From Candidatus Kaiserbacteria bacterium (lineage in GTDB: Bacteria; Patescibacteriota; Minisyncoccia; Phycocordibacterales; Phycocordibacteraceae), in NCBI GenBank assembly GCA_963813065.1, contig CAWEXP010000002.1, positions 1 through 63,334 on the forward strand: 63,334 nucleotides of DNA, in the 5' to 3' direction. The notes below the pieces were generated by a model that searched no databases, was not told where the DNA came from, and saw only the letters and a list, made by a program, of their open reading frames with translations. The position numbers were made by a program, and so were the translations under genes. This document shows, piece by piece, positions 1 to 54,012 of this stretch. How positions within the stretch are numbered: the stretch's first letter is position 1; each line of letters opens with the position of its first letter.

Positions 1-88
1 GCGGAAGGGGCGGGATTCGAACCCGCGGTTAAGTTTCCCTAACACATGCTTTCCAAGCATGCGCATTCGACCACTCTGCCACCCTTCC
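1..88 (-). tRNA. tRNA-Ser(GGA)
   Basis: Reverse complement folds as a cloverleaf: acceptor GGAAGGG/CCCTTCC, anticodon arm CATGC-TTGGAAA-GCATG, long variable arm, T-loop TTCGAAT, G73. Confidence 0.95.
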
Positions 89-89
89 A

Positions 90-738
90 TTGCTTGTCGA
101 CCGAACCAATACGCTCAGTCGAGGTACATATCTGTAGATATTTAGCGACGGCATCTTCCTTATAGAGGTAGATATCCCGTCCCTTGGTACTAATATGAGG
201 CATAATGCCAAATTCTTCAAATATCGCCGCGACTTGCCGAAGCAGTTGAGGAGAATGGCTAGTGAAGAGAGCCCAATATTTTTATACGGCTTACCGGCCA
301 CTTGGTGTTTGTGCACATAGAGACAACCGTCGGTATCTATGAGACCACGAACGCACGCTTTACGGAAAGATCGATTGGCCATAATCCATTGCGGTATCTT
401 GAGACCCTGCAGAAGTTTATTACCACGGCGAAGCCCATTGGAAACAAAAAAGTCTACAACAGCAGTACTGGTCAGTACGATGACGAGAGCTTGTTTATCT
501 TTTCGCTTATGCACCGTTGGCAGTACGGCAAACAACTCGACACAGAGATTGATAATGTGATTTTTATACTCCTTATCAGCGATGGCATTGATGGTTATGG
601 TTCTTGCCACGGATTACCAATCCCGCCATCACCCATCATGATGCCAAAAAATTCTGCGAGCCGCTCGGAGCGCGCCGGAAGCGTTACTTTTTTTCGATGG
701 CTCTTCTTAGGATACTTTAGGAGTGCAAACTCCGACAT
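90..738 (-). pseudogene. Double-motif LAGLIDADG homing endonuclease, frameshifted (about 600 and 265)
   Basis: Motif 1 LAEFFGIMMGDG (frame from ATG 738) and motif 2 CVRGLIDTDG (ORF 29..610). A third frame continues FTSHSPQLLRQV... toward the tRNA-Ser 5' end. The frameshifts may be sequencing errors; the 3' end is uncertain. Confidence 0.8.
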
Positions 739-776
739 CCTAACTATTTTAACCTAGAATTACGAACCGAGATTTG

Positions 777-1693
777 TTACGCCTTCTGTCCCAAGAGTGC
801 CGCGATGCGCGCGGGAATAGGCGGATGCGTCGAGAAAGTCGCTCGATCCAGCCCGAAGTGCCGCCCGTCTTGCCGAAGGGGTCGCCGATGAAGAGGTGTG
901 CGGTCGCGAGGTTGGCATTTTTCATAGGGACATCGTAAGTCCCTATTTTTTGCAGTGCGGAGGCGAGACCCTCGGGGTACCGCGTGAGGAGCGCGCCCGA
1001 GGCGTCGGCGAGATATTCGCGACGGCGACTGATGGCGAGCTCGATGAGTTTCGCCGCGATGGGCGCGAGGACGATGCCGACCAACGCGAGAATCATCAGG
1101 AGTGCGCCGCCGTTATCGCGGTTACTGCTCCGCCCGCCCTGGCCGGGCAGGCCAATGCCCCAGAAGGACATCCGCAAGAAAATATTCGCCGCGAGAGCGA
1201 CGAAGCCCGCAAGCACCACCGCGACCGTCATCAGGAGCATATCGCGATTCTTGATGTGCGAGAGCTCGTGCGCGATGACGCCCTCGAGCTCGGGCCGCGT
1301 CATCATCGCGAGGAGGCCGGTAGTCGCGCAGACGACCGCATGCTGTTCGTCGCGTCCCGTGGCGAAGGCGTTGGGCGCTGGGTCGTCAATTACATATAAT
1401 TTCGGCGTCGGAAGGCCTGCAGTGATTGAAAGATTCTCGGCGACGGTATAGAAGTCGAAGAATTCTTCGCGCGTCGCGGGCCGCGCTTTGTTGAGCGAGA
1501 GGACGAGCTTGTCGCTCTGCCAGTAGGCGTAGAAGTTCGTTGCAAAGGCGATGACGACCGCGATGATGAGGATTGCGGGGTCCTGGTAGTACCAGGAAAT
1601 GCCGTACCCAATCGCAATGACGACGACCAAGAACCCGAGCACCAAAGCCCAGGTCCGGCGGATATTGCTCGAACGTTCTGCGTAGAGATTCAT
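777..1693 (-). CDS. htpX: HtpX-like M48 zinc metalloprotease (C-terminal frameshift near 838)
   Basis: PNAFATG, AHELSH (HExxH), SRRREYLAD. The conserved FSTHPP tail and TAA at 777-779 are in another frame. Lies downstream of lemA. Confidence 0.9.
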
Positions 1694-1717
1694 TTACTTG
1701 TAGCGAACGGAGTCGAG

Positions 1718-2278
1718 CTAGAACGAAACCTTCACCGGTTCGGCGGCGGCAGAATCGGCGGCCGCGAGCTCGAAGAGGTCCATCGGCTTGAAACCGAAGG
1801 TGCCCGCGATGAGATTGCTCGGGAAGGATTGGGTGGAGGTGTTGAGCGCCATCACGGTGGTGTTGTAGAAACGGCGCGCCGACTGGATCTTGTCCTCGGT
1901 GTCGCCGAGTTCTTTCTGGAGCTGGAGGAAATTCTGATTCGCCTTCAGGTCCGGATACGCTTCAGACACAGCGAAGAGCGTCTTCAGAGCTCCCGTGAGC
2001 TGATTCTCGGCTTGTGCCTTGTCGGCGGGGGCGGTTGCACCCATCGCGGCGGAGCGCGCCTTGGTCACATTTTCAAACGCGGTCGATTCGTGCGCGGCAT
2101 AACCCTTAACCGTCGCGACGAGGTTCGGGATGAGGTCATAGCGGCGCTTGAGCTGGACCGCGATGTCGGCCCAGGCCTCCTTCGCGCGGTTGGTCAGCGT
2201 CACGAGGCCATTGAAAGCGAAAATAACCCAGAGAATGATAACCGCAACGACGGCGAGAACGATATAGGTGGTAGTCAT
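1718..2278 (-). CDS. lemA: LemA family protein
   Basis: N-terminal TM helix; QLKRRYDLIPNLV, EAYPDLKANQNF, ARRFYN. Confidence 0.95.
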   Translation of the reverse strand: MTTTYIVLAVVAVIILWVIFAFNGLVTLTNRAKEAWADIAVQLKRRYDLIPNLVATVKGYAAHESTAFENVTKARSAAMGATAPADKAQAENQLTGALKTLFAVSEAYPDLKANQNFLQLQKELGDTEDKIQSARRFYNTTVMALNTSTQSFPSNLIAGTFGFKPMDLFELAAADSAAAEPVKVSF

Positions 2279-2318
2279 GAGCGGATTATACCACGCAAAC
2301 AGAACGCAAGGGCGCTAT

Positions 2319-2347
2319 TTGACAATAAATAGGCCCTATGCTAGGGT
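2319..2347 (+). promoter_or_regulatory. Sigma70-type promoter for the beta-barrel-like gene
   Basis: TTGACA-17 nt-TAGGGT with an extended -10 TG, upstream of GAGGGAG RBS and ATG 2412. Confidence 0.55.
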
Positions 2348-2411
2348 ACTCTCGAAGAGTCCACCGCGAGGAATGGCCCCGCGCACTACTTCAAAAGAGG
2401 GAGTTGTTCTT

Positions 2412-3092
2412 ATGAAAAGACAATTATTGGGTTTGTTTGCGGGTGTTTCCGCATTTGCTTTGATCGCCAGCGCCGCATTGGCCGCGCCAAACGGATTCTA
2501 TGCCGGCGGCACGGCGGGCGTCTATTACGGCCACCAGGCCAGCGGCGGCACGGGCTATGCGTATGGCACGCCCGAGACCGGTTACTTCTTCGGTCCGAGC
2601 GCGAGCTACTACCAGCCCCTGAGTATCGGAGGCGTCAGCCTCATCGGCGTCGGCAAGGTCAATCTGCTTTTCGGCAATTTTGGCGCGACAGCAACGCAAA
2701 ACTTCGGATCCGAAACGGACACCAACCGCCACTCGATCGACTCGGCGGCCAGCGTTCAGCTCGGTCTGGCCAAGGAAGTCGCAGTGATCGGATTGAAATT
2801 CACTCCGGAAGTCGACGGCGGCATGAGCTTCGCTCACGTCAACGACACTTGGCGCGAAGTCTTCTCGGGCGGATCGAGCCATGGCGCAAGCAGTTCCTAC
2901 TGCTCGGGCCTTAACTGGTCGGCCGGCGCTTCGGCGGAAGTGCTCAACGGCGTTTTCGCCGGGGTACACTACGAGAGCACAACCTGCCAGTCCAGTCACT
3001 ATGTTGCGATGGGCACGAACGTCACGCCCTATTCCTATCATGGAGCGGACACGTTCAACGGCGTCAACTTCGACATCAAGATCAAAGTCTGA
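2412..3092 (+). CDS. Secreted protein resembling an 8-stranded outer-membrane beta-barrel (Omp25/OmpA-TM-like)
   Basis: Signal peptide ending ASAALA, then about eight Gly/aromatic alternating strands (FYAGGTAGVYY, GYFFGPSASYY, FTPEVDGGMSF, GLNWSAGASAEV, VFAGVHYE, NGVNFDIKIKV). Has its own promoter, RBS and terminator. Confidence 0.55.
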   Translation: MKRQLLGLFAGVSAFALIASAALAAPNGFYAGGTAGVYYGHQASGGTGYAYGTPETGYFFGPSASYYQPLSIGGVSLIGVGKVNLLFGNFGATATQNFGSETDTNRHSIDSAASVQLGLAKEVAVIGLKFTPEVDGGMSFAHVNDTWREVFSGGSSHGASSSYCSGLNWSAGASAEVLNGVFAGVHYESTTCQSSHYVAMGTNVTPYSYHGADTFNGVNFDIKIKV

Positions 3093-3110
3093 TCTACCCA
3101 ATCTCAACCT

Positions 3111-3139
3111 GGCCCCGCTTCACTGCGGGGTCTTTTTTT
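3111..3139 (+). terminator. Intrinsic terminator
   Basis: GGCCCCGC-TTCACT-GCGGGGTC followed by a T-tract. Confidence 0.75.
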
Positions 3140-3154
3140 ATATATACTGCCCGT

Positions 3155-5350
3155 ATGCATCCGAGCGACCTGATCGAAAAATACTTTCCACGATTGAAGA
3201 CCGATCAGAAGCGTGCGCTCCACAAGCTCGGCATCCGCACCCTCCGCGACCTGCTCTATCACTTTCCTTCCCGTTATGAAAATTCTGGACCGACCGGCAC
3301 GATTGCGGGCATTGCAGGGGGTGCAGAAGTAACTTTGTATGGCACCATCCGCAAGCCCGACATACGCAAGACCTGGAAGAGTCGCCGACCCATCGCCGAG
3401 GCTTGGCTCGAGGACGCCTCGGGGCGAATGAAACTCATGTGGTTCTCTCAACCCTATATCGCGAAGACGCTCCACGACGGCATGGTGGTGCGCGTCTCGG
3501 GGAAAGTAAGCGGTGAAGGCGCGAAAGCGTATCTCGCGAATCCGGAAATAGAGAGAACGGAACTGCGACCAGACGAGGTGCATGAAAATCTTTTCAATTC
3601 CAAAGTTAGGACATCGGATGTCCTAACTTCGAATGAGGGACATCCGATGTCCGGCTTGCATCCGATTTATCCGGAGAGTCGCGGCGTCTCCTCGCTCTGG
3701 ATGCAACATGCGGTGAAAAAATTGTTTGAGTCGGGCCTGCACGAGCAAATCGCCGAGCCGATTCCGCGTGAAGTGCTCGAGCGCTACCACCTGCCCTCAC
3801 TCGCGACCGCACTCGTCTGGATGCATGCACCGCTGAAGCAGAGCGACGCGACGGCGGCGCGCAAGCGATTCGCCTTCGAAGAAGTGTTCGCGCTCCAGGT
3901 CGCCTTGCAGAAGCGCCGCCGAGACCTGCAAGCCGAGCGCGCACTACCCGTGACTACCGACCGTGCGGCGCTCGCGGACTTCGTGCGTTCATTCCCCTTC
4001 CCGCCCACCGCAGCGCAGACGCGCGCCATCGACGCCATCACTACCGACTTCGAGAAGCCGCACCCAATGTTGCGACTCCTCGAAGGCGATGTGGGCTCGG
4101 GGAAAACTGCCGTCGCCGCGGCCACCGCGTATCTCGTCGCGACTTCGCGACCGCCGAACCGGATTGCCGGCACGCTCCAAGTCGCGTATCTGGTCCCGAC
4201 CGAAATTTTGGCGAAACAACATTTCTCGACCTTCGTCTCCTACTTCAAGAATCACCCCATCCCCATCGGACTCATCACGGGCAATGAGTGCCGCGTCTTC
4301 CCCTCACGCGTGCGGTACGAAGAATCGGCAAAACTCTCGAAAGCAACCTTCCGCAAGCGCGTCGCCGACGGACTCATCCCGATTGTCATCGGCACGCATG
4401 CGCTCGTCGAGAAGTCGCTCCACTTCAAACATCTCGCGTACGCGATTATCGACGAACAACATCGCTTCGGTACCGTCCATAGGCAGAAATTGGTGCGCAA
4501 GGATAATGTCGCGCCGCACCTGCTCTCGATGACGGCAACGCCCATTCCGCGCACGCTCGCGCTCACTATCTACGGCGACTTGGACTTATCGCTCCTCGAC
4601 GAGATGCCGCCGGGGCGCAAAATGGTTATCACCGAAATCGCGGGGCCAGAAAAACGTGAGGGCGCGTACACGCGCGTGCGCGAAGAGTTGGCGAAAGGTC
4701 ACCAAGCGTACGTGATCTGCCCACGCATCGACGAACCGGACCCGAAAAAAGAATTCGCTCTGCAGGCCAAGTCGGTCATCGCCGAGGCCGAGCGACTACA
4801 GTCAAAAGTGTTTCCGCGGGCGTCGGTCGGCATATTGCACAGCAAGATGACGCCCGTGGAAAAAGAGGAATCGATGAAAAGTTTTGAAAAGGGCGAGACG
4901 AACATCCTCGTCGCGACCTCAGTGGTCGAGGTGGGTGTCAACGTCCCGAACGCGACCGTCATCTTGATAGAAGGTGCCGAGCGATTTGGCCTTGCCCAGC
5001 TCCACCAGCTCCGCGGTCGCGTTATCCGCTCGACCTTCCAATCCTATTGCTTTGCACTGACCGAATCGAAGAATGAAACGACGCGCAATCGTATGAAAGC
5101 TTTCACGACCGCGAAAAACGGTTTCGAGCTCGCCGAGTACGATCTCGCGCTCCGCGGTGCCGGCGAGCTCGCGGGCGGCAAGCAATGGGGCGTCTCGGAC
5201 GTGGCGATGGAAGCGTTGAAAAATATCAAACTCGTTGAGGCCGCGCGCGCCGAAGCAAGCGCGATTATACAAAGTGATCCGACCTTGCGCGACCACCCCG
5301 TGCTCTCGGCGCGTGCCGCGGGTGCCGAAGCCGACGTGCATCCGGAATAA
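3155..5350 (+). CDS. recG: ATP-dependent DNA helicase RecG
   Basis: OB/wedge domain, RLLEGDVGSGKT, IIDEQHRFG, LSMTATPIPRTL, RFGLAQLHQLRGRV, DLALRGAGE. Confidence 0.97.
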   Translation: MHPSDLIEKYFPRLKTDQKRALHKLGIRTLRDLLYHFPSRYENSGPTGTIAGIAGGAEVTLYGTIRKPDIRKTWKSRRPIAEAWLEDASGRMKLMWFSQPYIAKTLHDGMVVRVSGKVSGEGAKAYLANPEIERTELRPDEVHENLFNSKVRTSDVLTSNEGHPMSGLHPIYPESRGVSSLWMQHAVKKLFESGLHEQIAEPIPREVLERYHLPSLATALVWMHAPLKQSDATAARKRFAFEEVFALQVALQKRRRDLQAERALPVTTDRAALADFVRSFPFPPTAAQTRAIDAITTDFEKPHPMLRLLEGDVGSGKTAVAAATAYLVATSRPPNRIAGTLQVAYLVPTEILAKQHFSTFVSYFKNHPIPIGLITGNECRVFPSRVRYEESAKLSKATFRKRVADGLIPIVIGTHALVEKSLHFKHLAYAIIDEQHRFGTVHRQKLVRKDNVAPHLLSMTATPIPRTLALTIYGDLDLSLLDEMPPGRKMVITEIAGPEKREGAYTRVREELAKGHQAYVICPRIDEPDPKKEFALQAKSVIAEAERLQSKVFPRASVGILHSKMTPVEKEESMKSFEKGETNILVATSVVEVGVNVPNATVILIEGAERFGLAQLHQLRGRVIRSTFQSYCFALTESKNETTRNRMKAFTTAKNGFELAEYDLALRGAGELAGGKQWGVSDVAMEALKNIKLVEAARAEASAIIQSDPTLRDHPVLSARAAGAEADVHPE

Positions 5351-5386
5351 AAGAAAATCCCGCGCCGTAGGGGCGCGGGGGGGTAC

Positions 5387-5725
5387 TCATTCACCTAATT
5401 CATCCAATTCGTCGGCTTCTTCCCAGGCACAGGGATTGCCCGCATTGTCGAAAATAATCCAGACAATATTTACCAATCGACACGGCAAGGAGCCCTCGCC
5501 ACATACGGTTACCAGCACGCGCAAATGCATGAGATACGCAGGCTCACCTGCGCCTGTCTGGGGATGTCGACGCCGACCAAGCCGGATCGGCTTGCCGACG
5601 AAGCTCTCCTTGCACCCGCGCTCGAAAACGACGAGCTCATCCGCGGCTTGCCACGCAACCATCTGTGGCAAAATCGGGCCACTGATCATGCCCTCGTGTC
5701 GCCTCCGTGGCGTTTCTTGAGCCAT
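5387..5725 (-). CDS. Hypothetical protein (112 aa)
   Basis: ORF with GAGGAG RBS filling the gap between the recG terminator and tRNA-Ile; no recognised motif. Confidence 0.5.
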   Translation of the reverse strand: MAQETPRRRHEGMISGPILPQMVAWQAADELVVFERGCKESFVGKPIRLGRRRHPQTGAGEPAYLMHLRVLVTVCGEGSLPCRLVNIVWIIFDNAGNPCAWEEADELDELGE

Positions 5726-5776
5726 CGGCTACTCCTCTTTTTCTATCCTGCGGAATCCTAGCACACCTTCTTCTAG

Positions 5777-5849
5777 TCCGCCCCCTTGGACTCGAACCAA
5801 GAACCGCCGAGGTATAAGCTCGGTGCTCTAACCATTGAGCTAGGGGCGG
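5777..5849 (-). tRNA. tRNA-Ile(TAT)
   Basis: Acceptor CCGCCCC/GGGGCGG, A73, C4-G69, anticodon arm CCGAG-CTTATAC-CTCGG, T-loop TTCGAGT. Confidence 0.92.
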
Positions 5850-5876
5850 AACGTTACTACTCTACACCTTTTTTTC

Positions 5877-7772
5877 TTACACTTTCAAATCGTCATCTTT
5901 CTTTTTGGGCGTGATGCCGTTCGCGATGAGCAGGTTCTCGAAATCATCGCGTTCGAGTGTCTCTTTTTCTATCAGAGCCTGCGCCACCGCTTCGAGTGCG
6001 CCGCGATGCGCGTCGAGCACCTCTGCCGCGCGCGTCTTCGCCGTGTCGATAATTTTTGAAACTTCCGCATCAATCTTGGCCGCCACGGCGTCTGAGTATG
6101 GCTCCATCCCGAGCGAACGCTCGCCGAAGGCGATTGGCCCGAGCGTGGTGCTCATTCCGTAGCTCGCCACCATATCGCGCGCGAGCGCGGTGATGACCGC
6201 GAGATCGTTGCTGGGCCCGGTGGTGACGTCGCCAAATATGGTCTCCTCCGCAACGTAGCCACCGAGCGTCGCCGCGATATCATCGAGGAATTGTTTGCGC
6301 GACTGCATCTTTTTATCTTCAAACGGCAACTTCAGCGTGTACCCCGCCGCGCGCCCGCGACTGATGATAGAAATCTTGTGCACCGGGTCGGCATATTCGA
6401 GCACCGAGGAGACGATCGCGTGCCCCGCTTCGTGATACGCGGTCAGCTCTTTCTCTTTCTTGGTGAGCAAATGTGATTTCCGTTCCGGACCCAACATGAC
6501 TTTTTCAATAGAACGAATCAAATCGAATTGTGCGACTTCTTTCCGATTCTCGCGCGCGGCGAGAATCGCGGCCTCGTTCATCAGCGAGTAGAGCTCCGCG
6601 CCAGAGAAACCGGGCGTGCGCTCGGCGACGACTGCGAGATTCACATCGGGGCCAAAGGGCTTCTTGCGCGCATGAATTTTCAAAATATCTTCGCGGTCCT
6701 TGCGGTCGGGCAGATCAATGGTTACGCGTCGGTCGAAGCGACCAGGGCGCAGGAGCGCCGGATCGAGCACGTCAGGGCGATTCGTTGCCGCCATCACCAC
6801 CACCTTCTCATGCGGCTCGAAGCCGTCCATCTCGACGAGAATCTGGTTGAGCGTCTGCTCGCGCTCGTCGTTGCCACCTCCGCCACCTGCGCCGCCGACG
6901 CCACCACGCGTGCGTCCAACCGCGTCAATCTCGTCGACGAAAATAATCGCGGGCGCCGCTTTCTTCGCGAGCTGGAAGAGGTCGCGCACCCGAGAGGCGC
7001 CCACGCCGACAAACATTTCCACAAATTCTGAACCGCTAATCGAGAAAAACGGCACGCCCGCCTCGCCCGCCACCGCGCGCGCGAGGAGCGTCTTGCCCGT
7101 GCCCGGCGCGCCCATGAGGATAATGCCTTTCGGGATGCGCGCGCCAATGTCCAAGAACTTTTTTGGATTCTTCAAGAAGTCGACAATTTCTAGCAGCTCT
7201 TCCTTCGCCTCGCGCGCGCCGGCAACATCGTTGAAGGTGACGCGCTGACTCGAATCCGCCGGATCAATCACGCGCGCTTTGGACTGGCCGAAGGTGAACG
7301 CCTGCATGCCCGCACCCTTGACCTGTCGCGAGAGGAACCAGAACAGGAGCGCGATAAACACGAGCGAGAGGATAATCGGCGAGAGCTCGAGAAACCAGAA
7401 TTGGAACGCCGACTCGCCCTGCACGGTAATCGCAACTTTCGTCAGCGCGGCGGGCGCCACACCATAGGTCGCCAGCGTCTCGGGCAATCCGGCGGCCGGG
7501 TCCTTATGCGACGTTTTCTCCGAACCGTCGGCGTAGTGCAGGTCGAGATTGTCACCACTTACCGTGATGCTCGAGACTTTGCCTGCGCTGACATCGCTCG
7601 CCACCTGCGAGAGCGGAATCGAGGCAGGCGCCGTGCCGATATTCGCGACGAGCGAGTATGCGCTCATCAAGAATAGGAAAATCAGCACCGTGACGGCGAG
7701 ATTGGAAACGAAGGAGGTGCCGCCCCACGCGGACTTCTTTTTCTTTTTGCTCGTATCCTGTTTTTTTGCCAT
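5877..7772 (-). CDS. ftsH: ATP-dependent zinc metalloprotease FtsH
   Basis: Two TM helices, [46 protein letters not shown]. Confidence 0.98.
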
Positions 7773-9560: not shown

Positions 9561-9963
9561 GGGGGTGACCGGCTTTGACGGTCTGTACGTTGAAATCGCG
9601 CGACGCAGTGCATGCTCGACTGCCACTCTAATCCTCTCGAGCACCAAACTTGCCAAGAACACCTTTGCAAGCGTGATGTCGCCGTACTTCGGTGCGGCTG
9701 ACTTCGCGTTCGTCTACGCGTAACCCTTACGGGTCTTCGCCTAGCGACGTCTTCCCTCTCCCGGCGCTCACAGCGCGAGGGCGGGCGGAATTATCTGTGA
9801 GATCGGCGACGAGCTTTCCGCCTCGTTTGCCTAAATAAGGAATCGGATAGGAATGGTTTCGTCGATGTTCCTCGCATCCTATCTTAAAACTAACGTCGAC
9901 TATGCGTCGTAGAAGCGCTTCAACTACCAGATTCGGACGTGGGTCCAATTCCCACCATCTCCA
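9561..9963 (+). ncRNA. ssrA: tmRNA
   Basis: 5' GGGGGTGACCGGCTTTGAC; 3' T-arm GTGGG-TCCAATT-CCCAC and CATCTCC-A with G3.U70; internal tag ORF 9652..9723. Confidence 0.93.
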
Positions 9964-9979
9964 CAACAGTAAACACCTG

Positions 9980-21025: not shown

Positions 21026-21271
21026 TCAGACTTGCCCAAGAGCAAGCCCCAACTTCCGCCCCCGAGGCCAGGATTTGATGAGGGATTCGCGCTTCGAGGC
21101 CGAGGAACGGTCGGGGTGCGACTCGGTGTAGCGGATTCGGCGAGCGCCGTGGGCACGAGTGTAGTGCCCGCCCGCTCCCTGCTGGTGCTCGGCGAAGCGG
21201 CGCGCGACGTCGGTCGTGATGCCCGTGTAGAGCGAGCCGTCGGCGCATTCGAGGAGGTAGACGAAATACAC
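21026..21271 (-). CDS. GIY-YIG nuclease (UPF0213/YhbQ-like)
   Basis: YFVYLLECADGSLYTGIT, RRFAEH, ASKRE. Confidence 0.9.
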   Translation of the reverse strand: MYFVYLLECADGSLYTGITTDVARRFAEHQQGAGGHYTRAHGARRIRYTESHPDRSSASKRESLIKSWPRGRKLGLALGQV

Positions 21272-34622: not shown

Positions 34623-35498
34623 TTATCGAGGTTTAACCTCGATATTTTTTGCGGCGTCGATGAAATCGTCGAGGTCACCAGTGAGGACTTTTTCTGGATT
34701 GCCGGATTCGAAATTGGTGCGGTGATCTTTCACCATTTTATACGGATGCAAGACATAGGAGCGAATCTGGCTCCCCCACTCGTTCGCGGTCGTCTTCGCG
34801 ATTGAGCGACCCTCTTTGGTCGCGCGTGCCTCCTCTTCTTGCAGAGCGAAAATCTTTGCCGCCAAGAGTTCCATGGCCTTCTCTTTATTTGCTGCTTGCG
34901 AACGCTCGCTCGAAATGTGCACCGAGAGATTGGTGGGTTTATGGAGAATGCGCACCGCGGTTTCGCGTTTATTCACATTCTGCCCGCCCGCGCCTCCGGC
35001 GCGGGCGAATTGTATTTCGAGCTCATCTGGCTTGAGCACCACCTTCTCGCTCGCGGCGAGCTTGGGCAGGACTTCTACCAATGCAAAACTAGTTTGTCGT
35101 TTGTCTTGGGCATTGAAGGGCGAGATGCGCACGAGCCGATGCACGCCCGCCTCGTGCTTGAGGCGGCCATACGCGCCCCCGCCATTTACTTCGAGTAAGA
35201 CGCTCCGATATCCGCCTTTGCTGTTCTCGTTCTCGTCGAGGATGCGCGTGCCCCAGCCTTTTTTGCTCGCATAGCCGCGATACATCGCGAGGAGCATCGC
35301 GGCGAAATCTTCAGCATCGTCCCCGCCCGCGCCGGCGAGGATGGCGAGAGTCGCCGAGCCACCATCGTGCCCTTCACCACCACCCTCTTTCAATTGTTGA
35401 TATTCGCGCACCAACTCTTGCGCCTGATCCTTATCGAGCCAAAACTCGGGTGACGCCATCAGCGCCTCGAGCTCCTCAAGCCGCTTCTCATTATCCAT
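34623..35498 (-). CDS. prfB: Peptide chain release factor 2 (short form, no internal programmed frameshift)
   Basis: [11 protein letters not shown] (SPF motif), [18 protein letters not shown]. Confidence 0.93.
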
Positions 35499-35499
35499 G

Positions 35500-35572
35500 A
35501 GCCGGAGGTCGGACTTGAACCGACGCACTTTCGCTTACGATGCGAATGCTCTACCAACTGAGCTACTCCGGC
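35500..35572 (-). tRNA. tRNA-Thr(CGT)
   Basis: Acceptor GCCGGAG/CTCCGGC, anticodon arm TTCGC-ATCGTAA-GCGAA, T-loop TTCAAGT. Confidence 0.93.
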
Positions 35573-35586: not shown

Positions 35587-36057
35587 TCATTCTTTCCCCT
35601 TTTTTGCGAGTGTCCGCGCTTCCGCCGCACGCTTGCTCGGTGCACGATATACTCTGCCATTCCCCTTGTTGAGCGCGGAGAATGTCGGAGTAAGAGCATC
35701 GCAGTTCGGACATAGGAGCCGGAGATTTTTCTCCACATTATTTTTCCAATTCCCGTCTATATGATCAGCCACGAGCGGCGCAACCTGTGTTACCGAGTTC
35801 ACTTTGGACCATCCGCACAGGCAACATTTATTTCCGTACTTCTCTCGCAAGTATCGTTTGATGTGGCCACCAACAAGACCCAGACTGTTTAATCCGACTT
35901 CTTTTCCATCCTTCCATCTCTGTATATAGCTACGATATTGGAATTCTTGCTGGCACGCATTACTGCAGTATTTGTAGAATGAACGTGCAGGTTCTTTCCC
36001 GCACACGGGACACTTTGGTCGTGATTTCCTTGGGTTCACTCTTTCACTATACTGCAA
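35587..36057 (-). CDS. HNH endonuclease with Zn-finger motifs
   Basis: CPVC, YCSNAC, CCLC, DHIDGNWKNN..NLRLLCPNC. Confidence 0.9.
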   Translation of the reverse strand: MQYSERVNPRKSRPKCPVCGKEPARSFYKYCSNACQQEFQYRSYIQRWKDGKEVGLNSLGLVGGHIKRYLREKYGNKCCLCGWSKVNSVTQVAPLVADHIDGNWKNNVEKNLRLLCPNCDALTPTFSALNKGNGRVYRAPSKRAAEARTLAKKGKE

Positions 36058-36109
36058 CTGTAGACCAAATACTCAACAAAATAAAGGTCTGCTGTTGATA
36101 ACTTCTTTG

Positions 36110-36359
36110 AGCCGCCTCCCAGATTTGAACTGGGGACCTACTCCTTCGCTTACACCTCCGTTTCTTTGTATCGGGGGGCTAGACTGTATCTTTGTCCGCA
36201 AGGGACACCCTTGTCAGTCGTTCGAGCGCCAGAGGCGCTACGGTCTTGTCCGTCGCCGGATATTAACCGTTATTCGGGATTCACGATTCCCTCGCGAGAA
36301 TCGTGGGCAGGGGTTTGCGACCCACCATGGAGTTGCTCTACCAACTGAGCTAAGGCGGC
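36110..36359 (-). tRNA. tRNA-Thr(GGT) interrupted by an intron (exons 36359-36324 and 36146-36110)
   Basis: Joining the exons gives GCCGCCT/AGGCGGC, ACTCC-ATGGTAA-GGAGT and T-loop TTCAAAT. Confidence 0.9.
36147..36323 (-). ncRNA. Group I self-splicing intron (177 nt, no ORF) at tRNA position 36/37
   Basis: 5' exon ends in U and can form GGU/GCC (U.G at the splice site); P2 CACGATTCTC-GCGA-GGGAATCGTG; P7 GACTG/CAGTC; J8/7 AAGATA; P8 TGTCC/GGACA; terminal G. Confidence 0.85.
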
Positions 36360-47674: not shown

Positions 47675-47683
47675 ATGTTTCTC

Positions 47684-47787: not shown

Positions 47788-48600
47788 TTACGGCGTACCG
47801 AAGCCACCCATTGCAGTCTGACTGAACGCTTTGCCGCCCTGGCTCGCCCGCACCGCGGACTGCGAGAGCATGCCGAACGCTTTCCGGATGCCGGACGGCG
47901 AACTGTCGGGCGTGAGAATCCAGTCGTCCTGGATGCCCATGCTCTTGAATACCGCCGTGAAGTCGGTACCCTTGCGGATGATCCTTCCTTGGGCGTCTTT
48001 CTGGCTGTCGTCGATGCCCATACCGCTGATGATATGAGACTCGCTCATGAGCAGATCTCGCACGACCTTCTCGACGTCGGTCTCGTCGCACTTGTACGAG
48101 CCCTCGTCATGACCGTCGGTAATGATGCACGAGACGCCGCGACATGGAATACCGTTGTCGCGGAACTCTTGAGCCTTCGCCGCCACCGTCGCCAGGAACA
48201 AAACACCTTGGTCGTAGAGCGGCGTACCGCCGTTCGGATTATAATTCTGCGGCGTCATCCGCGGAGCGTCCTTGATGCGCACATACGGACAGAGGATCGT
48301 TCCGTTTAGGTAAGGGACATGGACGAGGATACTGTCTCGCTGTTTGGTCGCGAGCAGAGCATCCAGAATCCCGTTATAACCATCGCGGATATGTTGCGAA
48401 TTATTCCCGAACCTGATGGACGTAGAGTCGTCGACCAGGAGTGAGAACAACGTAACTTCACTGGACTGCACGTCTTCGGGCGAGATACCGAGTCCCGCCT
48501 GAATCTGCGCACCAAGATCTTCGACATCGACGACCGCCTGCGCTTGCGCACCGAGTGCACCGTTGGTGAAGAGACCTTGCACTGTTTGGGAGTTACCCAT
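47788..48600 (-). CDS. von Willebrand factor A (TerY-like) domain protein
   Basis: MIDAS motif DDSTS, GGTPLYD, ITDG. Confidence 0.8.
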   Translation of the reverse strand: MGNSQTVQGLFTNGALGAQAQAVVDVEDLGAQIQAGLGISPEDVQSSEVTLFSLLVDDSTSIRFGNNSQHIRDGYNGILDALLATKQRDSILVHVPYLNGTILCPYVRIKDAPRMTPQNYNPNGGTPLYDQGVLFLATVAAKAQEFRDNGIPCRGVSCIITDGHDEGSYKCDETDVEKVVRDLLMSESHIISGMGIDDSQKDAQGRIIRKGTDFTAVFKSMGIQDDWILTPDSSPSGIRKAFGMLSQSAVRASQGGKAFSQTAMGGFGTP

Positions 48601-48674
48601 GAACGTAATCCTTTCTAAGAGAAGTTGCAGGCGGCCGACCATCGGCCGCCTGCGTACACACGTGAGACACAAAC

Positions 48675-49730
48675 TTAGAGCTCAATGCCGGGCCATTCCT
48701 GGATCGGCGTCGTGCTCTTGACCACATGCATGCCGGCGTTTGCGAAGCTCGCGAGTGCCGCCTCCGCTTGTGGCGTGTAGTCGGCATAGAAACCGCCCTT
48801 GCCGTCGGGAACCGTCACCGAAGACATGCAGTCTTCCATGAGGTACACCTTCTCGGCAAGCTTCGGATCCTTCGCACTGATTTCCGCAAGCAGATCTTCG
48901 ATGGTGCTCTTGTCGCAGTGACTCGCCGCTTCTCCCTCGATGATGAGGTAGTCGGCCTCTAGAAGGTCGTTGATGAACCGCACGTTCTTCTGCGCGAGCG
49001 GCTTACCGTCCCAGCGGGTCAAGACTTCCGGCCGCAGGACCGAGTAGTTCTCGGTAAGCGGATGTCCGCCCTTGACCTCGCAGTCGGTCTGCGCCCCGCG
49101 AGCGAACGCGTGGAACATCCGTGCTTCGTGGAGGATGCCGACTAGTGCGTGACCCGCAGAGCCCAAGATGCAGTGAGGAGGCCAAACATAGAGCTTGTAT
49201 TTGCCCTCACGTTCGAGTTCACGGCAGTAGTGGAGCAGGTGTTGGCCGAGCCACAGGTAGTCGATGCCAAGCGCCGAGGCGACCAACATCGAAACTTGAA
49301 CGCGTCGCCGTTCTACATCTGCGACTGACACTTCTGTGTAGGCCGGCACCGGCGTCCCGTCGTCGTAGACCAAGAAGGCTGAGAAGAAGATCTGGTACGC
49401 GAAGTGCGTATCAAACGTAGCTTTGGTCTTGGTGATGATGCCCAGATTGCGATAGATGAACTCGGCGCTTCTGCGCGAGTCGTCAATCGCACCTTCGCCT
49501 GAACGTCCACCGACGTAGAGCGCACCACGCTTCATACAGAAGTCTTTCTGTCGATCGATGCTCAGCAGATAGACTTTCTTGCGGTCAGTCGAAGAGGCTT
49601 TGAGACCAAACCGCTTCCTCCAATCGAGAGCGGCGGCGAACAACGCTGCCTGGTTGGGATCGTAGTCCCAGTCTCCCGCATGCTTCGGATCGAAGAACGT
49701 GGGGAGTGGTAGTGCAGTCTTCGTAGTCAT
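48675..49730 (-). CDS. Nicotinamidase-like cysteine hydrolase (isochorismatase family)
   Basis: IDRQKDF, GALYV, DTH, WPPHC..GSAGH, VKG, ASHC. Confidence 0.85.
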   Translation of the reverse strand: MTTKTALPLPTFFDPKHAGDWDYDPNQAALFAAALDWRKRFGLKASSTDRKKVYLLSIDRQKDFCMKRGALYVGGRSGEGAIDDSRRSAEFIYRNLGIITKTKATFDTHFAYQIFFSAFLVYDDGTPVPAYTEVSVADVERRRVQVSMLVASALGIDYLWLGQHLLHYCRELEREGKYKLYVWPPHCILGSAGHALVGILHEARMFHAFARGAQTDCEVKGGHPLTENYSVLRPEVLTRWDGKPLAQKNVRFINDLLEADYLIIEGEAASHCDKSTIEDLLAEISAKDPKLAEKVYLMEDCMSSVTVPDGKGGFYADYTPQAEAALASFANAGMHVVKSTTPIQEWPGIEL

Positions 49731-49763
49731 GGTCTTTCCTTCCATGGTCGTGACCAGGATTGG

Positions 49764-51647
49764 TCATTTAAGAACGAGACGCCAGATATCGTGTTTACCG
49801 GCTACGTACAATCCCTTGTTGCCAAGGAATATGCGTGAGTCGGTATCCACGAACTGTGCGGTCGCGGGAAATTCTTTCACGACATTCAATTGAGTGCCGC
49901 CGAGTTCCACTCGGACGACACCATCGTCAGTCGCAGAAAGTAACAATCCGCCTGCCGCACACTTTCCTCGGATACTTCCGAGCCAACTGCCGTCTCCGGC
50001 GGTTGTCTCATGGCTCCCGAGATACACACCGTTGCCGTCGAGCACGTGGCAACGGTTTATTGTTTTGCCACCTTCACTCGTGGCGACAAAAAACCAAATT
50101 CGATCACTTCCGAAACAACACGTCGCGTCGACGAGTTGGCCGCGAATCGGCGGGAGAGTAACCGAATCATTGAGACCGGGATGGTTCGTATCGAACGCGA
50201 AGAAGACCGAAATCTCTCCTGCCCGATAGAAACCGAAGCCATGCTTCTCGCCGACCCAAAAGAGAGTCTGCGAGTTCAGCACGTCTCCCCAGCGCTCGGC
50301 ATAGTCAAAGCCGAGTTTGCCCACGCGCCACAAACCACCTCCGCGCGCGAAGAACACATTGGTACTATTCGCGTCGAAGATTGGTAAGAGCCCGCGGACA
50401 TCGGTCGAGAGTCGCTGGGTACCACCAGCATCGAACTGCACCGTCTGATCGGCACGCCCCAGGAGCGTTTTCGTACCGCTGATGCGGTAGCGAAGTTGCG
50501 CATCGAGAGCGCCCGCGATGATAGTGGCACCGCTCTCGCGCTTATACGAACCGTTGTCGTGATAGAGGTAACGAATCGTATCGCCTTCGAGAACTGCATA
50601 GAGAATCACACCGTCGGTATAGAACTCCTTGAAGGCGCTCACGCCTCCCGTGTGGATTTCCTTATGCATGGGCGGAGTGATCGTGGTGCACGAGGGACAC
50701 GAGGTCCGTGCATGCACCGCACCACATTTCGTGCAAGTGGTGAAGCGAAGATTTTCGATGAGTGCACGCGGTGGAATGCCGCGCTCATCCTTCTCGAACG
50801 TCCTTCGGAAGTGTTCCAGAAGAGTATCCGGCAATATATGATACGGCCGTGACGACTTCGGGCATTTCACTTCCGGATTGAAGATCGTGACTCGCTTGAG
50901 CGAGCGTCCGTCATACGGAATCCGCTTCTTCGGGTCCTTGGGGTTATGAACACCACCGTAGGGTCCGACCAGAAGTAGATTCTGCATGAGCATAACGTTG
51001 AACGCATACCAGTCAGAATTCGCGGTATGCGGTCTCACGAGAGTTGGCGTCTTCGCATTCGGATCGCAATTGAGCGGATCCACGAACTTCATCGTGAATG
51101 TCCGCGATAGGTACGGTCCGAACCCACCGCTATCGGCATCGATGATCCACGCCTTCCGGTCCTTTATAAGAACGTTCAGGTCGTTGAAGTCACTGATGAC
51201 GAAGTGCGATGAGTGGCGATGAGCCTCTTCGACGGTCTTGTGCAGGTCCACCAGCGTCTCGACGACGAAATCGTCGGGAATGCCGGTGTCGCGAAAGCTT
51301 TTCTCGCCATAGAGGTACAACACTTCACCCGAAACGAGTTCCATGCGATACCCGGCGATATTTCCTTTTGCGTCGAGCACCAAATCACGCGGGGATACCA
51401 CGCGAGCAGGAAGCCCGCGGGGAAAGTCGCGCAATTTCTTCTGATGTTCGGCGATGCGCTCTTTCGCCGCGGCGCGCGCCGCAATATCTTCCGGCCGAGT
51501 GCCGGCAAAATCTGCGTGCGTGGGCGGCTTGAAGATTTTGATGGCGAAACCGCCATCCTTGAAGATGTCTGCTTCGCCACCCTTCCCGACTGCGTCGTCG
51601 GGCCGTAGCCGAAGACGTTCTCCGTTTTCGAGGAAGTAATCAGGCAT
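49764..51647 (-). CDS. Ser/Thr protein kinase-like protein with Zn-ribbon and beta-rich C-terminal domain
   Basis: GKGGEADIF, AIKIF, ISDFNDLNVL, IIDADS; CTKC..CPSC. Confidence 0.85.
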   Translation of the reverse strand: MPDYFLENGERLRLRPDDAVGKGGEADIFKDGGFAIKIFKPPTHADFAGTRPEDIAARAAAKERIAEHQKKLRDFPRGLPARVVSPRDLVLDAKGNIAGYRMELVSGEVLYLYGEKSFRDTGIPDDFVVETLVDLHKTVEEAHRHSSHFVISDFNDLNVLIKDRKAWIIDADSGGFGPYLSRTFTMKFVDPLNCDPNAKTPTLVRPHTANSDWYAFNVMLMQNLLLVGPYGGVHNPKDPKKRIPYDGRSLKRVTIFNPEVKCPKSSRPYHILPDTLLEHFRRTFEKDERGIPPRALIENLRFTTCTKCGAVHARTSCPSCTTITPPMHKEIHTGGVSAFKEFYTDGVILYAVLEGDTIRYLYHDNGSYKRESGATIIAGALDAQLRYRISGTKTLLGRADQTVQFDAGGTQRLSTDVRGLLPIFDANSTNVFFARGGGLWRVGKLGFDYAERWGDVLNSQTLFWVGEKHGFGFYRAGEISVFFAFDTNHPGLNDSVTLPPIRGQLVDATCCFGSDRIWFFVATSEGGKTINRCHVLDGNGVYLGSHETTAGDGSWLGSIRGKCAAGGLLLSATDDGVVRVELGGTQLNVVKEFPATAQFVDTDSRIFLGNKGLYVAGKHDIWRLVLK

Positions 51648-52490
51648 TGGCAACTCCTTCAGTTTTCGGCGTGCGCCGAATGGCAACAAGTGTGGTGTCG
51701 TCCCTGAAGAGTCCGCGCTTGATGCGGCCCTGCTCCACCGTCTCGCAATTACTCATCGCGAGTCTGCGACGTATGCCGTCTTCGTTCCGGAAGAAAAAAT
51801 CATTTTCCCGAGAACTGACTGAGTGGACCGACCGGCTTGTGGCCGATCGGCATCGGGAGCGTCTCTGCCTGGATAAGGTCAGAAACGCCATCCGTACCAA
51901 TAAGGATTGACTGCACGTCTTTCGTATCGCGCACGAGGTTCGCGACAAACGAAGGCTTCTCGCCAGACTTGCGCGGCGCCAGGTTGTAGCCGAGATAGGG
52001 CGGCTCGTTCCCTGGGTAAGGACCCAAGGTAGTTACCGCACCATTCACCGCATACACACCATCGCCACACGAGAAAATGAGCTGTGGTGTGCGGCGTCAC
52101 TATGACGCCGATCGTCGAGAAGAAGAATTGCTCCTCCATAACGAAACCAGTATCGCCTCCGACGCTTTTCGCAATGAGTGAGATGCGGTCCAGAGGAACC
52201 TCTGTAAGCCATTCGAGGAATGCGCTAGCCGAGGTTTCTTGGATGCCGAGATTTTGAACGACCGGCACGTTGAGGAACCTCGCCGCTTCGTTTACGATGA
52301 TCCGTGCCCCGAGTGTCGCACCCACTTCGCTGTGCGAATGGCTCGAACAGCCGTCCGTTACCACAGCGACGAGGTGCGTAGGTGAGGCATGCCACCAAAG
52401 TGAGTCTTGATTGTTTTTCCAACCGGACTCGCCCGGCATGATGTGATCCATTCCCGGCACCGAGGCGCCGGCAATTTGGAATCCATCCAT
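51640..52490 (-). CDS. PP2C-like protein phosphatase (frameshifts near 52080 and 51825)
   Basis: NNQD, VTDGCS, CGDG, IGTDG and DDTT across three frames; its stop overlaps the kinase start (ATGCCTGA). Confidence 0.8.
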
Positions 52491-52614
52491 AACCTTCTCC
52501 TTTTCTAACTTTGCAATGGGTATGGGTCCTCTCAAAGAACCTCTCGACCCAAGGTCAAGATTCCCTACTTTTAACAAATGGATGACGTTTCGTCAATCTC
52601 ATGCTCTAGGCTAC

Positions 52615-52641
52615 AAAAAACCGAGGCAGTGCCTCGGTTTT
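52615..52641 (-). terminator. Intrinsic terminator after the Nudix gene
   Basis: AAAA-CCGAGGC-ACT-GCCTCGG-TTTTTT. Confidence 0.7.
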
Positions 52642-52662
52642 ACACACGTTAAGCGTCTTGTT

Positions 52663-53115
52663 TTAGAGGATGCCGCGCAGGGTGAACCAGAGCTTCCAGA
52701 CCGGCTCGATGTTCAGATCCTTCAGTTGTTCGCGCGTGAACCAGCCCCACCCCTTGGCCTCGTGCGGGTCGACGCGTACCTTCGCACGATCGACCCGGGC
52801 CTGATAGAGGTACCAATGGTGTACATCGCCATGCCGGCACGTATTCCACGGCACTTCGGCTTCCGCCAAGAGCACCACGTCGAAGATCTCGGTCCCGAGC
52901 TCTTCGCGGCCTTCGCGATGCACGGCGGTCAGCGGGTCTTCCCCTTCGTCCACATGGCCCGCCATCCCGGCGAAACCAAGGGGCGGGAACTTGCGATCGA
53001 GGAGCAGAAATTCTCCGGTCGCAGGGTCTTCGATAATCGCGCCGGCAGAGTAGTGCATCGGGCGACCGTCGCTGGCAGTCCCCATCTTTGGTTTGGGGTC
53101 GTGGGTATCCGTCAT
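52663..53115 (-). CDS. Nudix hydrolase
   Basis: AGHVDEGEDPLTAVHREGREELG; AAGGAAG RBS; TTGACA-17 nt-TAATTT upstream. Confidence 0.9.
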   Translation of the reverse strand: MTDTHDPKPKMGTASDGRPMHYSAGAIIEDPATGEFLLLDRKFPPLGFAGMAGHVDEGEDPLTAVHREGREELGTEIFDVVLLAEAEVPWNTCRHGDVHHWYLYQARVDRAKVRVDPHEAKGWGWFTREQLKDLNIEPVWKLWFTLRGIL

Positions 53116-53189
53116 GGTGCTTCCTTTCGTTTCTGGATTGAAATTACTATGCCCAATCCTCATTGTCAAAAACCGTAGCAAATCGAATG

Positions 53190-53229
53190 CGCGAGAGACG
53201 GGACTTGAACCCGCAACCTCCGCCGTGAC
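53190..53229 (-). pseudogene. Orphan 3' half of a tRNA-Asp (from anticodon GTC to discriminator)
   Basis: GTC-AC-GGCGG-AGGTT-GCGGG-TTCAAGT-CCCGT-CTCTCGC-G. Confidence 0.85.
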
Positions 53230-53258
53230 CAACGTAACTTAGGTTTTCTTAACTAATG

Positions 53259-53330
53259 CGCGGGTGACGAGTGCTGACCTCGCGACCTTCGCCGTGACAG
53301 GGCGACGCTCTACCGTTGAGCTACACCCGC
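53259..53330 (-). tRNA. tRNA-Asp(GTC) with non-canonical T-loop
   Basis: Acceptor GCGGGTG/CACCCGC, G73, anticodon arm TCGCC-CTGTCAC-GGCGA, T-arm GCGAG-GTCAGCA-CTCGT. Confidence 0.85.
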
Positions 53331-53331
53331 A

Positions 53332-54012
53332 TTAATTGTCAAGTCGTAAGACTTTCAGCGCTCGTTCTAATTTTCTACGTTTCCGCGGCAGATATAGATT
53401 CGAGGCAAAGCCAGTATGATACATCAGATGATAAAGCGCAACGCTGTCTCTATGGCTCAAGACCAACTCAAATCCTCTTGTTTTTCGCTTGATTGATCCG
53501 CCCCGGACTCCGTGAAGTGTTAGTGCGTGATGTAGGGATTCTAAAAACCCTAGCGAACCGCTCGTAAAGAGGCTCATGAGTATCCAACGTTTTCCCTTTC
53601 GATCGGCAAATTGTAATTTGTTGAAGTACGCGCATCCATCACCATCAAAGTAACCGCGCACGAAATCTCCAAGAAACTGAGCCGGAACTTTAGGAAAACG
53701 CAAGGTATTACTCTTATGTTGAGTAAAGCCCAGTCGAGCTAAATCAGCAAACCATTTTTTGCTTCCGATTTGTAAGCGGTATGCGGTCTTTCGGTTGTCG
53801 CCGCGTTCTCGCGCCGCGATGTGATGACTCGATGTTGTGGCCCGCTGTATGACTTCGAGCACTATTCGATCGGTACTGGTGAACTCAATAAAACATCCGC
53901 CACGACGGTTCTTTAACATTGAGCCGTCCGCGGCGAAGAATCCAAGTACGTACGCCATTTCGGGTGACCATTTCTTGAAGAAGTCCCGATTGAGTGTGCA
54001 ACGCTGTGACAT
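53332..54012 (-). CDS. Double-motif LAGLIDADG homing endonuclease (intact)
   Basis: MAYVLGFFAADGS and FVRGYFDGDGC; stop lies 1 nt before tRNA-Asp. Confidence 0.92.
   Translation of the reverse strand: MSQRCTLNRDFFKKWSPEMAYVLGFFAADGSMLKNRRGGCFIEFTSTDRIVLEVIQRATTSSHHIAARERGDNRKTAYRLQIGSKKWFADLARLGFTQHKSNTLRFPKVPAQFLGDFVRGYFDGDGCAYFNKLQFADRKGKRWILMSLFTSGSLGFLESLHHALTLHGVRGGSIKRKTRGFELVLSHRDSVALYHLMYHTGFASNLYLPRKRRKLERALKVLRLDN

Follow-up and report, generated by a model that had tools for sequence, protein, structure and literature searches.

The subject of this work is a set of three loci in the genome of a Candidatus Kaiserbacteria bacterium (GCA_963813065.1; 814 kb in 10 contigs; G000 below), at each of which a gene for a homing endonuclease stands directly before a tRNA gene. 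The loci lie within the first 63,334 nucleotides (nt) of contig C2 (CAWEXP010000002.1, positions 1-63,334, forward strand), and this whole stretch is called the window. The association of each endonuclease with its tRNA gene is site-specific and secure. We further hold it rather probable, though far from certain, that the genes are free-standing homing cassettes, which would cut a specific tRNA gene and bring along an immune replacement for it. Mobility of such cassettes is likely.

The initial annotation of the window had described three endonuclease genes, each immediately 5′ of a tRNA gene, and all three were found in those places by ARAGORN, Rfam, Pfam and PHROG. It had also correctly recognized that two unrelated families are involved, LAGLIDADG and HNH; that the genes are co-oriented with their tRNAs (tRNA-Ser, tRNA-Thr(CGU), tRNA-Asp and tRNA-Met are all on the minus strand); and that none of the open reading frames (ORFs) is inside an intron, as they lie between tRNA genes and are not surrounded by any Rfam intron. 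It had overlooked a tRNA-Met gene upstream of the endonuclease gene next to tRNA-Asp, remnants of tRNA-Asp on both sides of that gene, an intron-bearing tRNA-Thr(GGU), and the association with group I introns in the probable target tRNAs. In our analysis tRNA genes were called with ARAGORN and Rfam, and those with introns with ARAGORN -i.

At the Asp locus, a LAGLIDADG gene of 226 amino acids (aa) with two motifs (53332-54012, minus strand; PF14528, E 3e-12, 47 bits with a cut-off of 22.5) has its stop codon 1 nt short of an intact tRNA-Asp(GUC) (53258-53330, minus; ARAGORN and Rfam), and its upstream neighbor is tRNA-Met(CAU) (54072-54148, minus; ARAGORN and Rfam). At the Thr locus, the HNH ORF (35587-36057, minus; PHROG 1271, phage HNH endonuclease families, E 7e-20) stops 14 nt short of tRNA-Thr(CGU) (35499-35572, minus; ARAGORN and Rfam). 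At locus 1, on the contig end, a LAGLIDADG gene that occupies three reading frames (39-738, minus) has no stop before tRNA-Ser(GGA) (1-88, minus; ARAGORN; Rfam tRNA, 62 bits), and 50 nt of its reading frame enter the tRNA.

Adjacency to tRNA genes is enriched across the genome, as the initial annotation had anticipated. A crude set of 783 ORFs was used for the chance test, and an ORF was counted if its end fell within -120 to +20 nt of the start of a co-oriented tRNA. Nine ORFs end in this interval, and five of them are endonuclease genes: the three of the window, a LAGLIDADG gene before tRNA-Leu(GAG), and an HNH gene whose stop abuts tRNA-Ser(UGA), the last two on contig C8. Five of the six LAGLIDADG_3 or HNH genes outside rRNA are adjacent to a tRNA start, versus 4 of the 777 other ORFs (Fisher p = 3e-10). 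The sixth, a LAGLIDADG gene, begins at the base that follows the 3′ end of tRNA-Lys(UUU). Among the four remaining ORFs of the nine, that at C4 72842-73672 (minus) encodes a helix-turn-helix protein of 250 aa with a weak LAGLIDADG match, overlaps tRNA-Gln(UUG) by 65 nt, and is probably a seventh endonuclease gene docked at a tRNA. The genome has three more LAGLIDADG genes, all of which belong to the LAGLIDADG_1 type; the two examined are associated with rRNA and are situated amid matches to group I introns on contig C10.

Relatives were examined in 201 genomes sampled from the same order. Homologs of the protein of the Asp locus occur in 55 of them, and the best loci are at tRNA-Asp in 26; counts for this lineage cover these 26 loci (39-65% identity, many families), and those for the Thr lineage cover 14. 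In 26/26 the gene follows tRNA-Met and stands directly against tRNA-Asp, while more distant homologs adjoin tRNA-Cys. The HNH gene is found at tRNA-Thr(CGU) in 14/201 genomes, and its orthologs (61-71% identity) lie between Thr(GGU) and Thr(CGU) in 13 of 13 cases. The next HNH clade (44-52% identity) adjoins tRNA-Thr(UGU), and matches to the HNH domain only are found at tRNA-Leu(UAA). Relatives of the locus-1 gene are located at tRNA-Ser genes (GGA, CGA, UGA and GCU) and more distant ones at tRNA-Tyr, tRNA-Gln and tRNA-Leu(CAA). The layout of tRNA-Met, endonuclease gene and tRNA-Asp is also present in metagenome-assembled genomes labeled Parcubacteria, Kaiserbacteria, Nomurabacteria and Minisyncoccia. 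These names were not used to argue for horizontal transfer because loci that are nearly identical bear inconsistent labels. Across the order, each lineage is tied to a single tRNA identity, and the initial annotation was very probably right in regarding the tRNA gene as the conserved target.

Flanks of the endonuclease genes

The sequence that precedes the Asp-linked gene resembles its probable target. Between tRNA-Met and the start codon lies a decayed 5′ half of tRNA-Asp (54013-54063, minus), with the core GGTTAGagttaagtCCTGTC at 54045-54026; it is followed by the box TAGAAT (54024-54019), 6 nt before the ATG. The remnant GGTTAGAGTTAAGTCCTGTC (54045-54026) is the sole match in the 63 kb, with 0.03 expected. 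The search in relatives was confined to the spacer from tRNA-Met to the start codon, since the D-arm of tRNA-Met confounds a wider one. A tRNA-Asp-like piece is conserved in at least 22 of the 26 loci, just 5′ of the -10 box. In its consensus, TGGTTAGtgtAATntCCTGTCAC, the letters of the D-loop and of the anticodon loop are 85-100% conserved, and the anticodon stem has given way to A+T-rich sequence. The piece was not found in the empty alleles inspected. Equivalents exist in the other lineages: GGAGacGTcGCATAGTGGTCTAGT, followed by TATAAT and a start codon 6 nt further on, in the Ser lineage (L074, L090), and a 5′ half of tRNA-Thr, cut after anticodon C34, in two of the 14 Thr loci (L047, L052).

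On the other side, 27-28 nt downstream of the intact tRNA-Asp, lies an orphan 3′ half of canonical tRNA-Asp that starts at the anticodon GTC (GTCACGGCGGAGGTTGCGGGTTCAAGTCCCGTCTCTCGCG; 53189-53229, minus; sequence match). This half is undecayed, and among the 26 occupied loci it is present in the genome of the window only. The gene is therefore bracketed by parts of its probable target tRNA, an arrangement that points to insertion into a tRNA gene accompanied by a replacement part.

In most relatives the endonuclease gene also extends into the tRNA. The stop codon is inside tRNA-Asp in 21 of the 26 Asp-lineage loci, where it is usually the tRNA's own U8-A9-G10 (..aTGCGGnCGTAG|CTCA..) or else a TAG of the D-loop. 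Stops inside the tRNA are likewise found in 6/14 Thr loci and in most Ser loci, with overlaps of 13-111 nt in the latter. Separation of mRNA and tRNA by RNase P, as the initial annotation proposed, is plausible; since the stop lies inside the tRNA, the cut would strip the stop codon from the mRNA in most relatives.

A second conserved trait is a box of the form TAnnnT. In 25/26 loci of the Asp lineage and in 14/14 of the Thr lineage, an in-frame start follows this box at a distance of 5-8 nt; if only the homologous start codon is considered (5-8 nt, mostly 6-7), the counts are 22/26 and about 12/14. Orthologs at the Thr site often have the full arrangement TTGACA-17-TATAAT-6-ATG. In the window, the counterpart is TATAGT (36046-36051, minus), 6 nt before GTG 36039. 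The position of this box makes GTG 36039 the likely true start of the HNH gene, and the orthologs start near residue 7 of the window ORF. At locus 1, by analogy with L074 and L090, the -10-like box would be TAAAAT (746-751, minus), 7 nt before the ATG at 738. Because the -10 box lies 6-7 nt before the start codon, these patterns suggest that the endonuclease genes have their own promoter and a leaderless mRNA. Given such boxes, transcription borrowed from a tRNA operon, another element of the initial annotation, is not needed. Read-through from tRNA-Met may nevertheless occur in the window, where a promoter and terminator scan detected no terminator between tRNA-Met, the LAGLIDADG gene and tRNA-Asp.

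These flanks bear on a simpler explanation, in which the 5′ flanks of tRNA genes are a passive niche: insertions would be tolerated there, with a target in or near the tRNA, transcription by read-through from the tRNA operon, and separation by RNase P. Co-orientation and the lack of a detected terminator from tRNA-Met to tRNA-Asp are in keeping with this idea, and so are the window stops, which fall just outside the tRNAs; besides, about 92% of the genome is coding, and spacers between tRNAs are among its few neutral sites. The idea leaves unexplained, however, why each lineage has one tRNA identity, why remnants of the same tRNA lie upstream and an orphan 3′ half downstream, why a -10 box is conserved at a fixed distance from the start, and why the linked alleles show the intron and D-loop pattern described below. 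We regard it as rather unlikely. What remains of the niche that had been postulated is its recurrent and enriched architecture; mere parking in the flank does not agree with elements bracketed by pieces of the same tRNA.

Introns, variant alleles and occupancy

Introns are found close to endonuclease genes both at the Thr locus of the window and in the Asp lineage. Upstream of the HNH ORF, at a distance of 51 nt, lies a tRNA-Thr(GGU) gene (36109-36359, minus; identified by sequence and ARAGORN -i) with an ORF-less intron of 177 nt (36147-36323) between positions 36 and 37. ARAGORN -i labels this gene Arg(GCG) and places the intron differently. The Rfam model RF00028 gave no match to 36147-36323, either at the gathering threshold or at E <= 10. 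Homologs of the intron exist in three relatives, and a AAGATACAGTC core with GACTG upstream is conserved across all four sequences. Their hairpins vary in sequence and keep their pairing, as judged by inspection, and the boundaries read ...GGT|GGG...GCG|AA. On sequence grounds only, the intron may be described as group I-like. For reference, an intron in a tRNA-Met gene on contig C3 scores 44 bits with RF00028, just under the gathering score of 50. A further ARAGORN -i call, a second intron-bearing tRNA-Ser(GGA) on contig C4, was rejected as false since it lies inside serS.

The Asp lineage offers a clearer case. In 13 of the 26 occupied loci, tRNA-Asp is interrupted between T35 and C36 by an intron that is clearly of group I. 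Outside the endonuclease loci, the intron is found in at least 6 endonuclease-free genomes (about 6-8 of 175); a plain tRNA-Asp is present in at least 69 genomes without the endonuclease. The intron is thus present in about 50% of occupied alleles versus about 4% of empty ones (odds ratio about 21). On the endonuclease tree, intron state requires 11 changes, at least six of them forced by well-supported branches, and this number is no smaller than with shuffled labels. The link between intron and endonuclease therefore does not stem from a single ancestral co-occurrence.

Linked alleles that lack the intron differ from ordinary ones in another way. The canonical D-loop TGGTTAGAGC is found in 56 of the 69 endonuclease-free intronless alleles and in 11 of the 13 linked intron-bearing alleles, but only in 1 of the 13 linked intronless alleles (p = 7e-7 and 2e-4 for these contrasts; p-values for the intron and D-loop associations are inflated because the genomes are related). 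Among the other 12 linked intronless alleles, at least eight distinct variants of the D-arm or D-loop were counted. The last letters of the remnant are CCTGTCAC, the first of the orphan half are GTC, and the intron is inserted between T35 and C36. Remnant, variant alleles and intron position thus appear to converge on a segment of about 22 bp, from D-loop to anticodon loop, which is the size of a LAGLIDADG site, 20-24 bp.

The tRNA-Asp of the window belongs to the variant class, with a short D-loop (AACGGTAGAGC). It also has a T-loop, GTCAGCA, that replaces the usual TTCAAGT. Among the loci examined, this T-loop recurs only in G165 and G089 (L025, L027), two distant genomes that both carry the endonuclease.

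We also considered the proteins themselves. The Asp-linked protein has the motifs LGFFAADG (D29) and RGYFDGDG (D123/D125), which are invariant in nine sequences. Its AlphaFold2 model (predicted local distance difference test score, pLDDT, 87; predicted template modeling score, pTM, 0.86) has a duplicated alpha-beta-beta-alpha-beta-beta-alpha fold, and the top Foldseek matches, with probability 1.0, are the monomeric homing endonucleases I-Tsp061I, I-OnuI, I-SmaMI and E-DreI. In the HNH protein there is a zinc ribbon at the N-terminus, and the pattern CCLCG...ADHIDGNWKNN..NLRLLCPNCD is conserved in the 14 orthologs. At the position of the last His of the HNH motif, all members of the Thr(CGU) clade have Asp, and the Thr(UGU) clade has His; Pfam PF01844 scores 14.5 bits on this protein, below its cut-off of 21.4. 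A sequence search of the Protein Data Bank yielded no match for either the LAGLIDADG or the HNH protein. From their conserved motifs, the predicted enzymes look intact.

Proteins of this kind might have been domesticated as host factors that are no longer mobile, either maturases for the group I introns of tRNAs or DNA-binding regulators of tRNA loci. They are 40-70% identical in one place across the order and are associated with intron-bearing tRNAs, and the fold search also lists, lower down, the bifunctional I-AniI and the bI3 maturase. Domestication seems, however, very unlikely: half of the occupied loci are intronless and at least six genomes have the intron without the protein, each gene is present in only 7-13% of genomes and differs in occurrence between genomes of the same genus, and the catalytic acidic residues are retained, as is the HNH motif save for its last His.

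Occupied and empty alleles were then compared. The Asp site is occupied in 26/201 genomes; elsewhere it is empty and consists of tRNA-Met, a spacer of 39-70 nt, and tRNA-Asp. At the Thr site, G000 contains the HNH gene, and G174, from the same genus, lacks it: its Thr(GGU) is intronless and is separated from Thr(CGU) by a spacer of 49 nt. The tRNA genes at this site differ as well. The body of Thr(CGU) in G000 (GCCGGAG...) is unlike that of Thr(CGU) in G174 and equals that of G174 Thr(UGU), while G000 Thr(GGU), the gene with the intron, shares its acceptor, D and T arms with G174 Thr(CGU); G077, from the same family as G000, shows a third arrangement. The isoacceptor bodies compared are those at 35499-35572 and 36109-36359 of the window, at C10:151713-151787, and at L105 and L106-L108. 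This pattern fits repeated conversion of anticodon arms between paralogous tRNA-Thr genes. The reshuffled Thr bodies of G000, G174 and G077 and the T-loop common to G000, G165 and G089 are suggestive, as candidate traces of co-conversion. Insertion boundaries could not be defined at the nucleotide level in the same-genus pair formed by G038 (occupied) and G150 (empty, with intron), whose spacers are too diverged.

Three side observations were made at these sites. One empty allele, L055 in G070, has a Met-Asp spacer of 176 nt that holds a partial second copy of the tRNA-Met 3′ end, broken by an insert. In L117 (G015), 625 nt separate tRNA-Met from a tRNA-Asp with an intron downstream of it, and no endonuclease match was detected there; the gap could hold a decayed cassette. 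At the Thr locus of the window, the start codon of prfB follows tRNA-Thr(CGU) almost directly (35496-35499, minus), and G174 has about 190 nt there; a boundary of the cassette may coincide with the 3′ end of tRNA-Thr(CGU).

The distribution just described admits another explanation, namely that the genes are immobile relics: old insertions, inherited vertically and lost many times, whose tRNA remnants would be the fossil traces of one-time events long ago. Occupancy of one and the same site in many families, together with a remnant that is shared and already decayed, suggests common descent. The Asp-linked protein, moreover, is 65% identical between G000 and G174, and neighboring genes are 73-75% identical in DNA. 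Relics are nevertheless difficult to reconcile with intact ORFs and conserved active sites, with an undecayed orphan 3′ half that is unique to the window, with the presence of both HNH gene and intron in G000 and of neither in G174, with reshuffled tRNA bodies, and with an intron state that flips at least 6 to 11 times on the endonuclease tree. On balance, we find this explanation quite unlikely.

Proposed mechanism and known systems

The interpretation that we favor, that of homing cassettes, can be outlined as follows. A cassette would consist of a decayed 5′ tRNA piece, a -10 box, an endonuclease ORF that abuts or overlaps the tRNA, and an intact copy of that tRNA. Cleavage by the enzyme would fall between D-loop and anticodon loop, in an ordinary tRNA gene that has no cassette. 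Repair of the break from an occupied allele would then copy the endonuclease gene together with a replacement for the 5′ part of the tRNA, and sometimes with a whole tRNA, as may have happened with the tRNA-Asp of the window. The old 5′ part would be displaced upstream, where it would decay and come to overlap the promoter. The linked tRNA would owe its resistance to cutting to one of two features, a group I intron within the anticodon loop or an altered D-loop or D-arm. Endonuclease and tRNA would be co-transcribed, and RNase P would release the tRNA.

Several points weigh against this scheme. In the window itself, the Asp and Thr stops are outside the tRNAs (by 1 and 14 nt), tRNA-Asp is intronless, the Thr locus has no clear remnant, and a simple promoter scan of the Asp and Thr loci detected no full -35/-10 promoter. 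The argument for a promoter comes from comparative conservation of the -10 box alone, a signal that is weak in the window. The conserved upstream piece could be an operator or promoter that merely resembles a tRNA, and the variant D-loops, instead of conferring immunity, could have hitch-hiked with transferred alleles. Intron and endonuclease are separable, as at least six genomes have the intron only and 13 the endonuclease only. Fisher tests across relatives ignore kinship and thereby overstate significance. Finally, long-term vertical inheritance with losses could give much of the patchy distribution. Each of the rival explanations, in turn, accounts for some of the observations and breaks down on those named beside it.

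A speculation goes one step further: bacteria of the candidate phyla radiation (CPR) might host a guild of single-gene homing cassettes that enter tRNA genes and bring a 5′ part resistant to the endonuclease, in which the displaced half is reused as promoter or operator, group I introns in anticodon loops persist because they immunize the tRNA gene, and repeated break repair reshuffles the anticodon arms of isoacceptors, so that selfish nucleases drive the evolution of tRNA genes in these reduced genomes. We put this broader picture forward tentatively, as possible but short of probable.

To our knowledge, what has been learned to date about free-standing homing endonucleases and about collaborative homing comes from phages. 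A close parallel is SegB of phage T4, a free-standing GIY-YIG homing endonuclease in a tRNA cluster, whose site is in the TpsiC stem-loop (PMC2330249). In SegB as in our loci, a free-standing gene lies between tRNA genes, the site includes, or here would include, a conserved tRNA motif, and homing drags, or here would drag, neighboring tRNA genes along. SegB is, however, a GIY-YIG enzyme of a phage and acts on the TpsiC region, whereas the genes described here are chromosomal CPR genes of the LAGLIDADG and HNH families with a predicted target from D-loop to anticodon. Our loci also differ in having one tRNA identity per lineage, an overlap of ORF and tRNA, and an upstream tRNA remnant.

Collaborative, or trans, homing has been described for F-CphI at cyanophage psbA and for T4 mobE/I-TevIII (PMC3984707; PMC2790892). 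The likeness resides in an HNH gene 51 nt away from an intron-bearing tRNA-Thr(GGU) and in 13 of 26 LAGLIDADG genes that abut an intron-bearing tRNA-Asp. The phage cases involve protein genes; ours involve cellular tRNA genes in which an intron is optional, with sequence variants in its stead in half of the occupied alleles. That the endonuclease target is the intron insertion site is conjectural in our case. I-Ssp6803I is a PD-(D/E)XK enzyme, encoded in an intron, that targets tRNA-fMet in its anticodon region (PMC3984707). It is, as our proteins would be, a bacterial homing endonuclease with an anticodon-region target in an intron-bearing tRNA gene, but our genes lie outside both tRNA and intron and belong to other families.

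Two further comparisons can be made, one within the CPR and one with larger elements. LAGLIDADG genes were reportedly found in rRNA insertions of CPR bacteria by Brown et al. in 2015. Phylum, enzyme superfamily and a target, here a probable one, in a conserved gene for a structural RNA are shared with our loci; those genes are, however, of the LAGLIDADG_1 type and lie in introns or insertions of 23S and 16S genes, while the genes linked to tRNAs are free-standing and of the LAGLIDADG_3 type. Integrase islands and prophages also use tRNA genes as insertion sites and repair the interrupted gene by means of a duplicated part of the tRNA. There, as would be the case here, a partial copy keeps the tRNA working and a partial tRNA repeat is left at the other end. 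The differences are that our loci have no integrase, that the 5′ and not the 3′ part is duplicated, that a single gene of about 0.7 kb is involved, and that break repair is the proposed route. Our literature search found no published description of endonucleases docked at tRNAs in CPR bacteria, and by analogy the system looks like an apparently cellular, undescribed version of the behavior of phage homing endonucleases.

If this interpretation is right, the loci would provide a widespread cellular case with many natural replicates, in which occupied, empty and intron-protected alleles can be compared directly. It would open to test how ORF-less group I introns spread and persist in bacterial tRNA genes, and how endonuclease genes and introns come to be joined. 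The loci could also be a source of compact LAGLIDADG and HNH enzymes with predictable tRNA-gene targets of about 20 bp. Annotation of tRNAs in the CPR calls for care. At the endonuclease sites, tRNA genes that are split, duplicated, chimeric or interrupted by an intron are concentrated, and ORFs that enter tRNAs there are real.

Locus 1 and GIY-YIG reading frames

The locus-1 gene passes PF14528 only when it is read across two frameshifts (E 1.5e-9, 38.5 bits on the joined reading), and its motifs are FFGIMMGDGG and VRGLIDTDGC. By comparison with an intact homolog of 62% identity in G156, the frameshifts, near 606 and 268, are each one base short in a homopolymer. The adjacent gene, htpX, has a shortfall of the same kind at about 812, and its true C-terminus, FSTHPPIPARIAALLGQKA, is encoded in another frame. 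Three one-base homopolymer defects within 900 nt at a contig end argue for assembly error over decay, and the locus-1 frameshifts are probably of that origin. A clean empty site for locus 1 was not found in G174 or G077, which have other genes between htpX and tRNA-Ser.

Small ORFs of the GIY-YIG family were also noticed. Two, of the URI type, are in the window, at 21026-21271 (minus) and 9331 to about 9460 (plus); the latter lies just before the gene for transfer-messenger RNA (tmRNA; 9561-9966), and its open frame continues into it. Five more are found elsewhere in the genome: one, on contig C10, has no tRNA nearby, and the other four lie beside tRNA-Tyr, tRNA-Ala, tRNA-Phe and tRNA-Glu.

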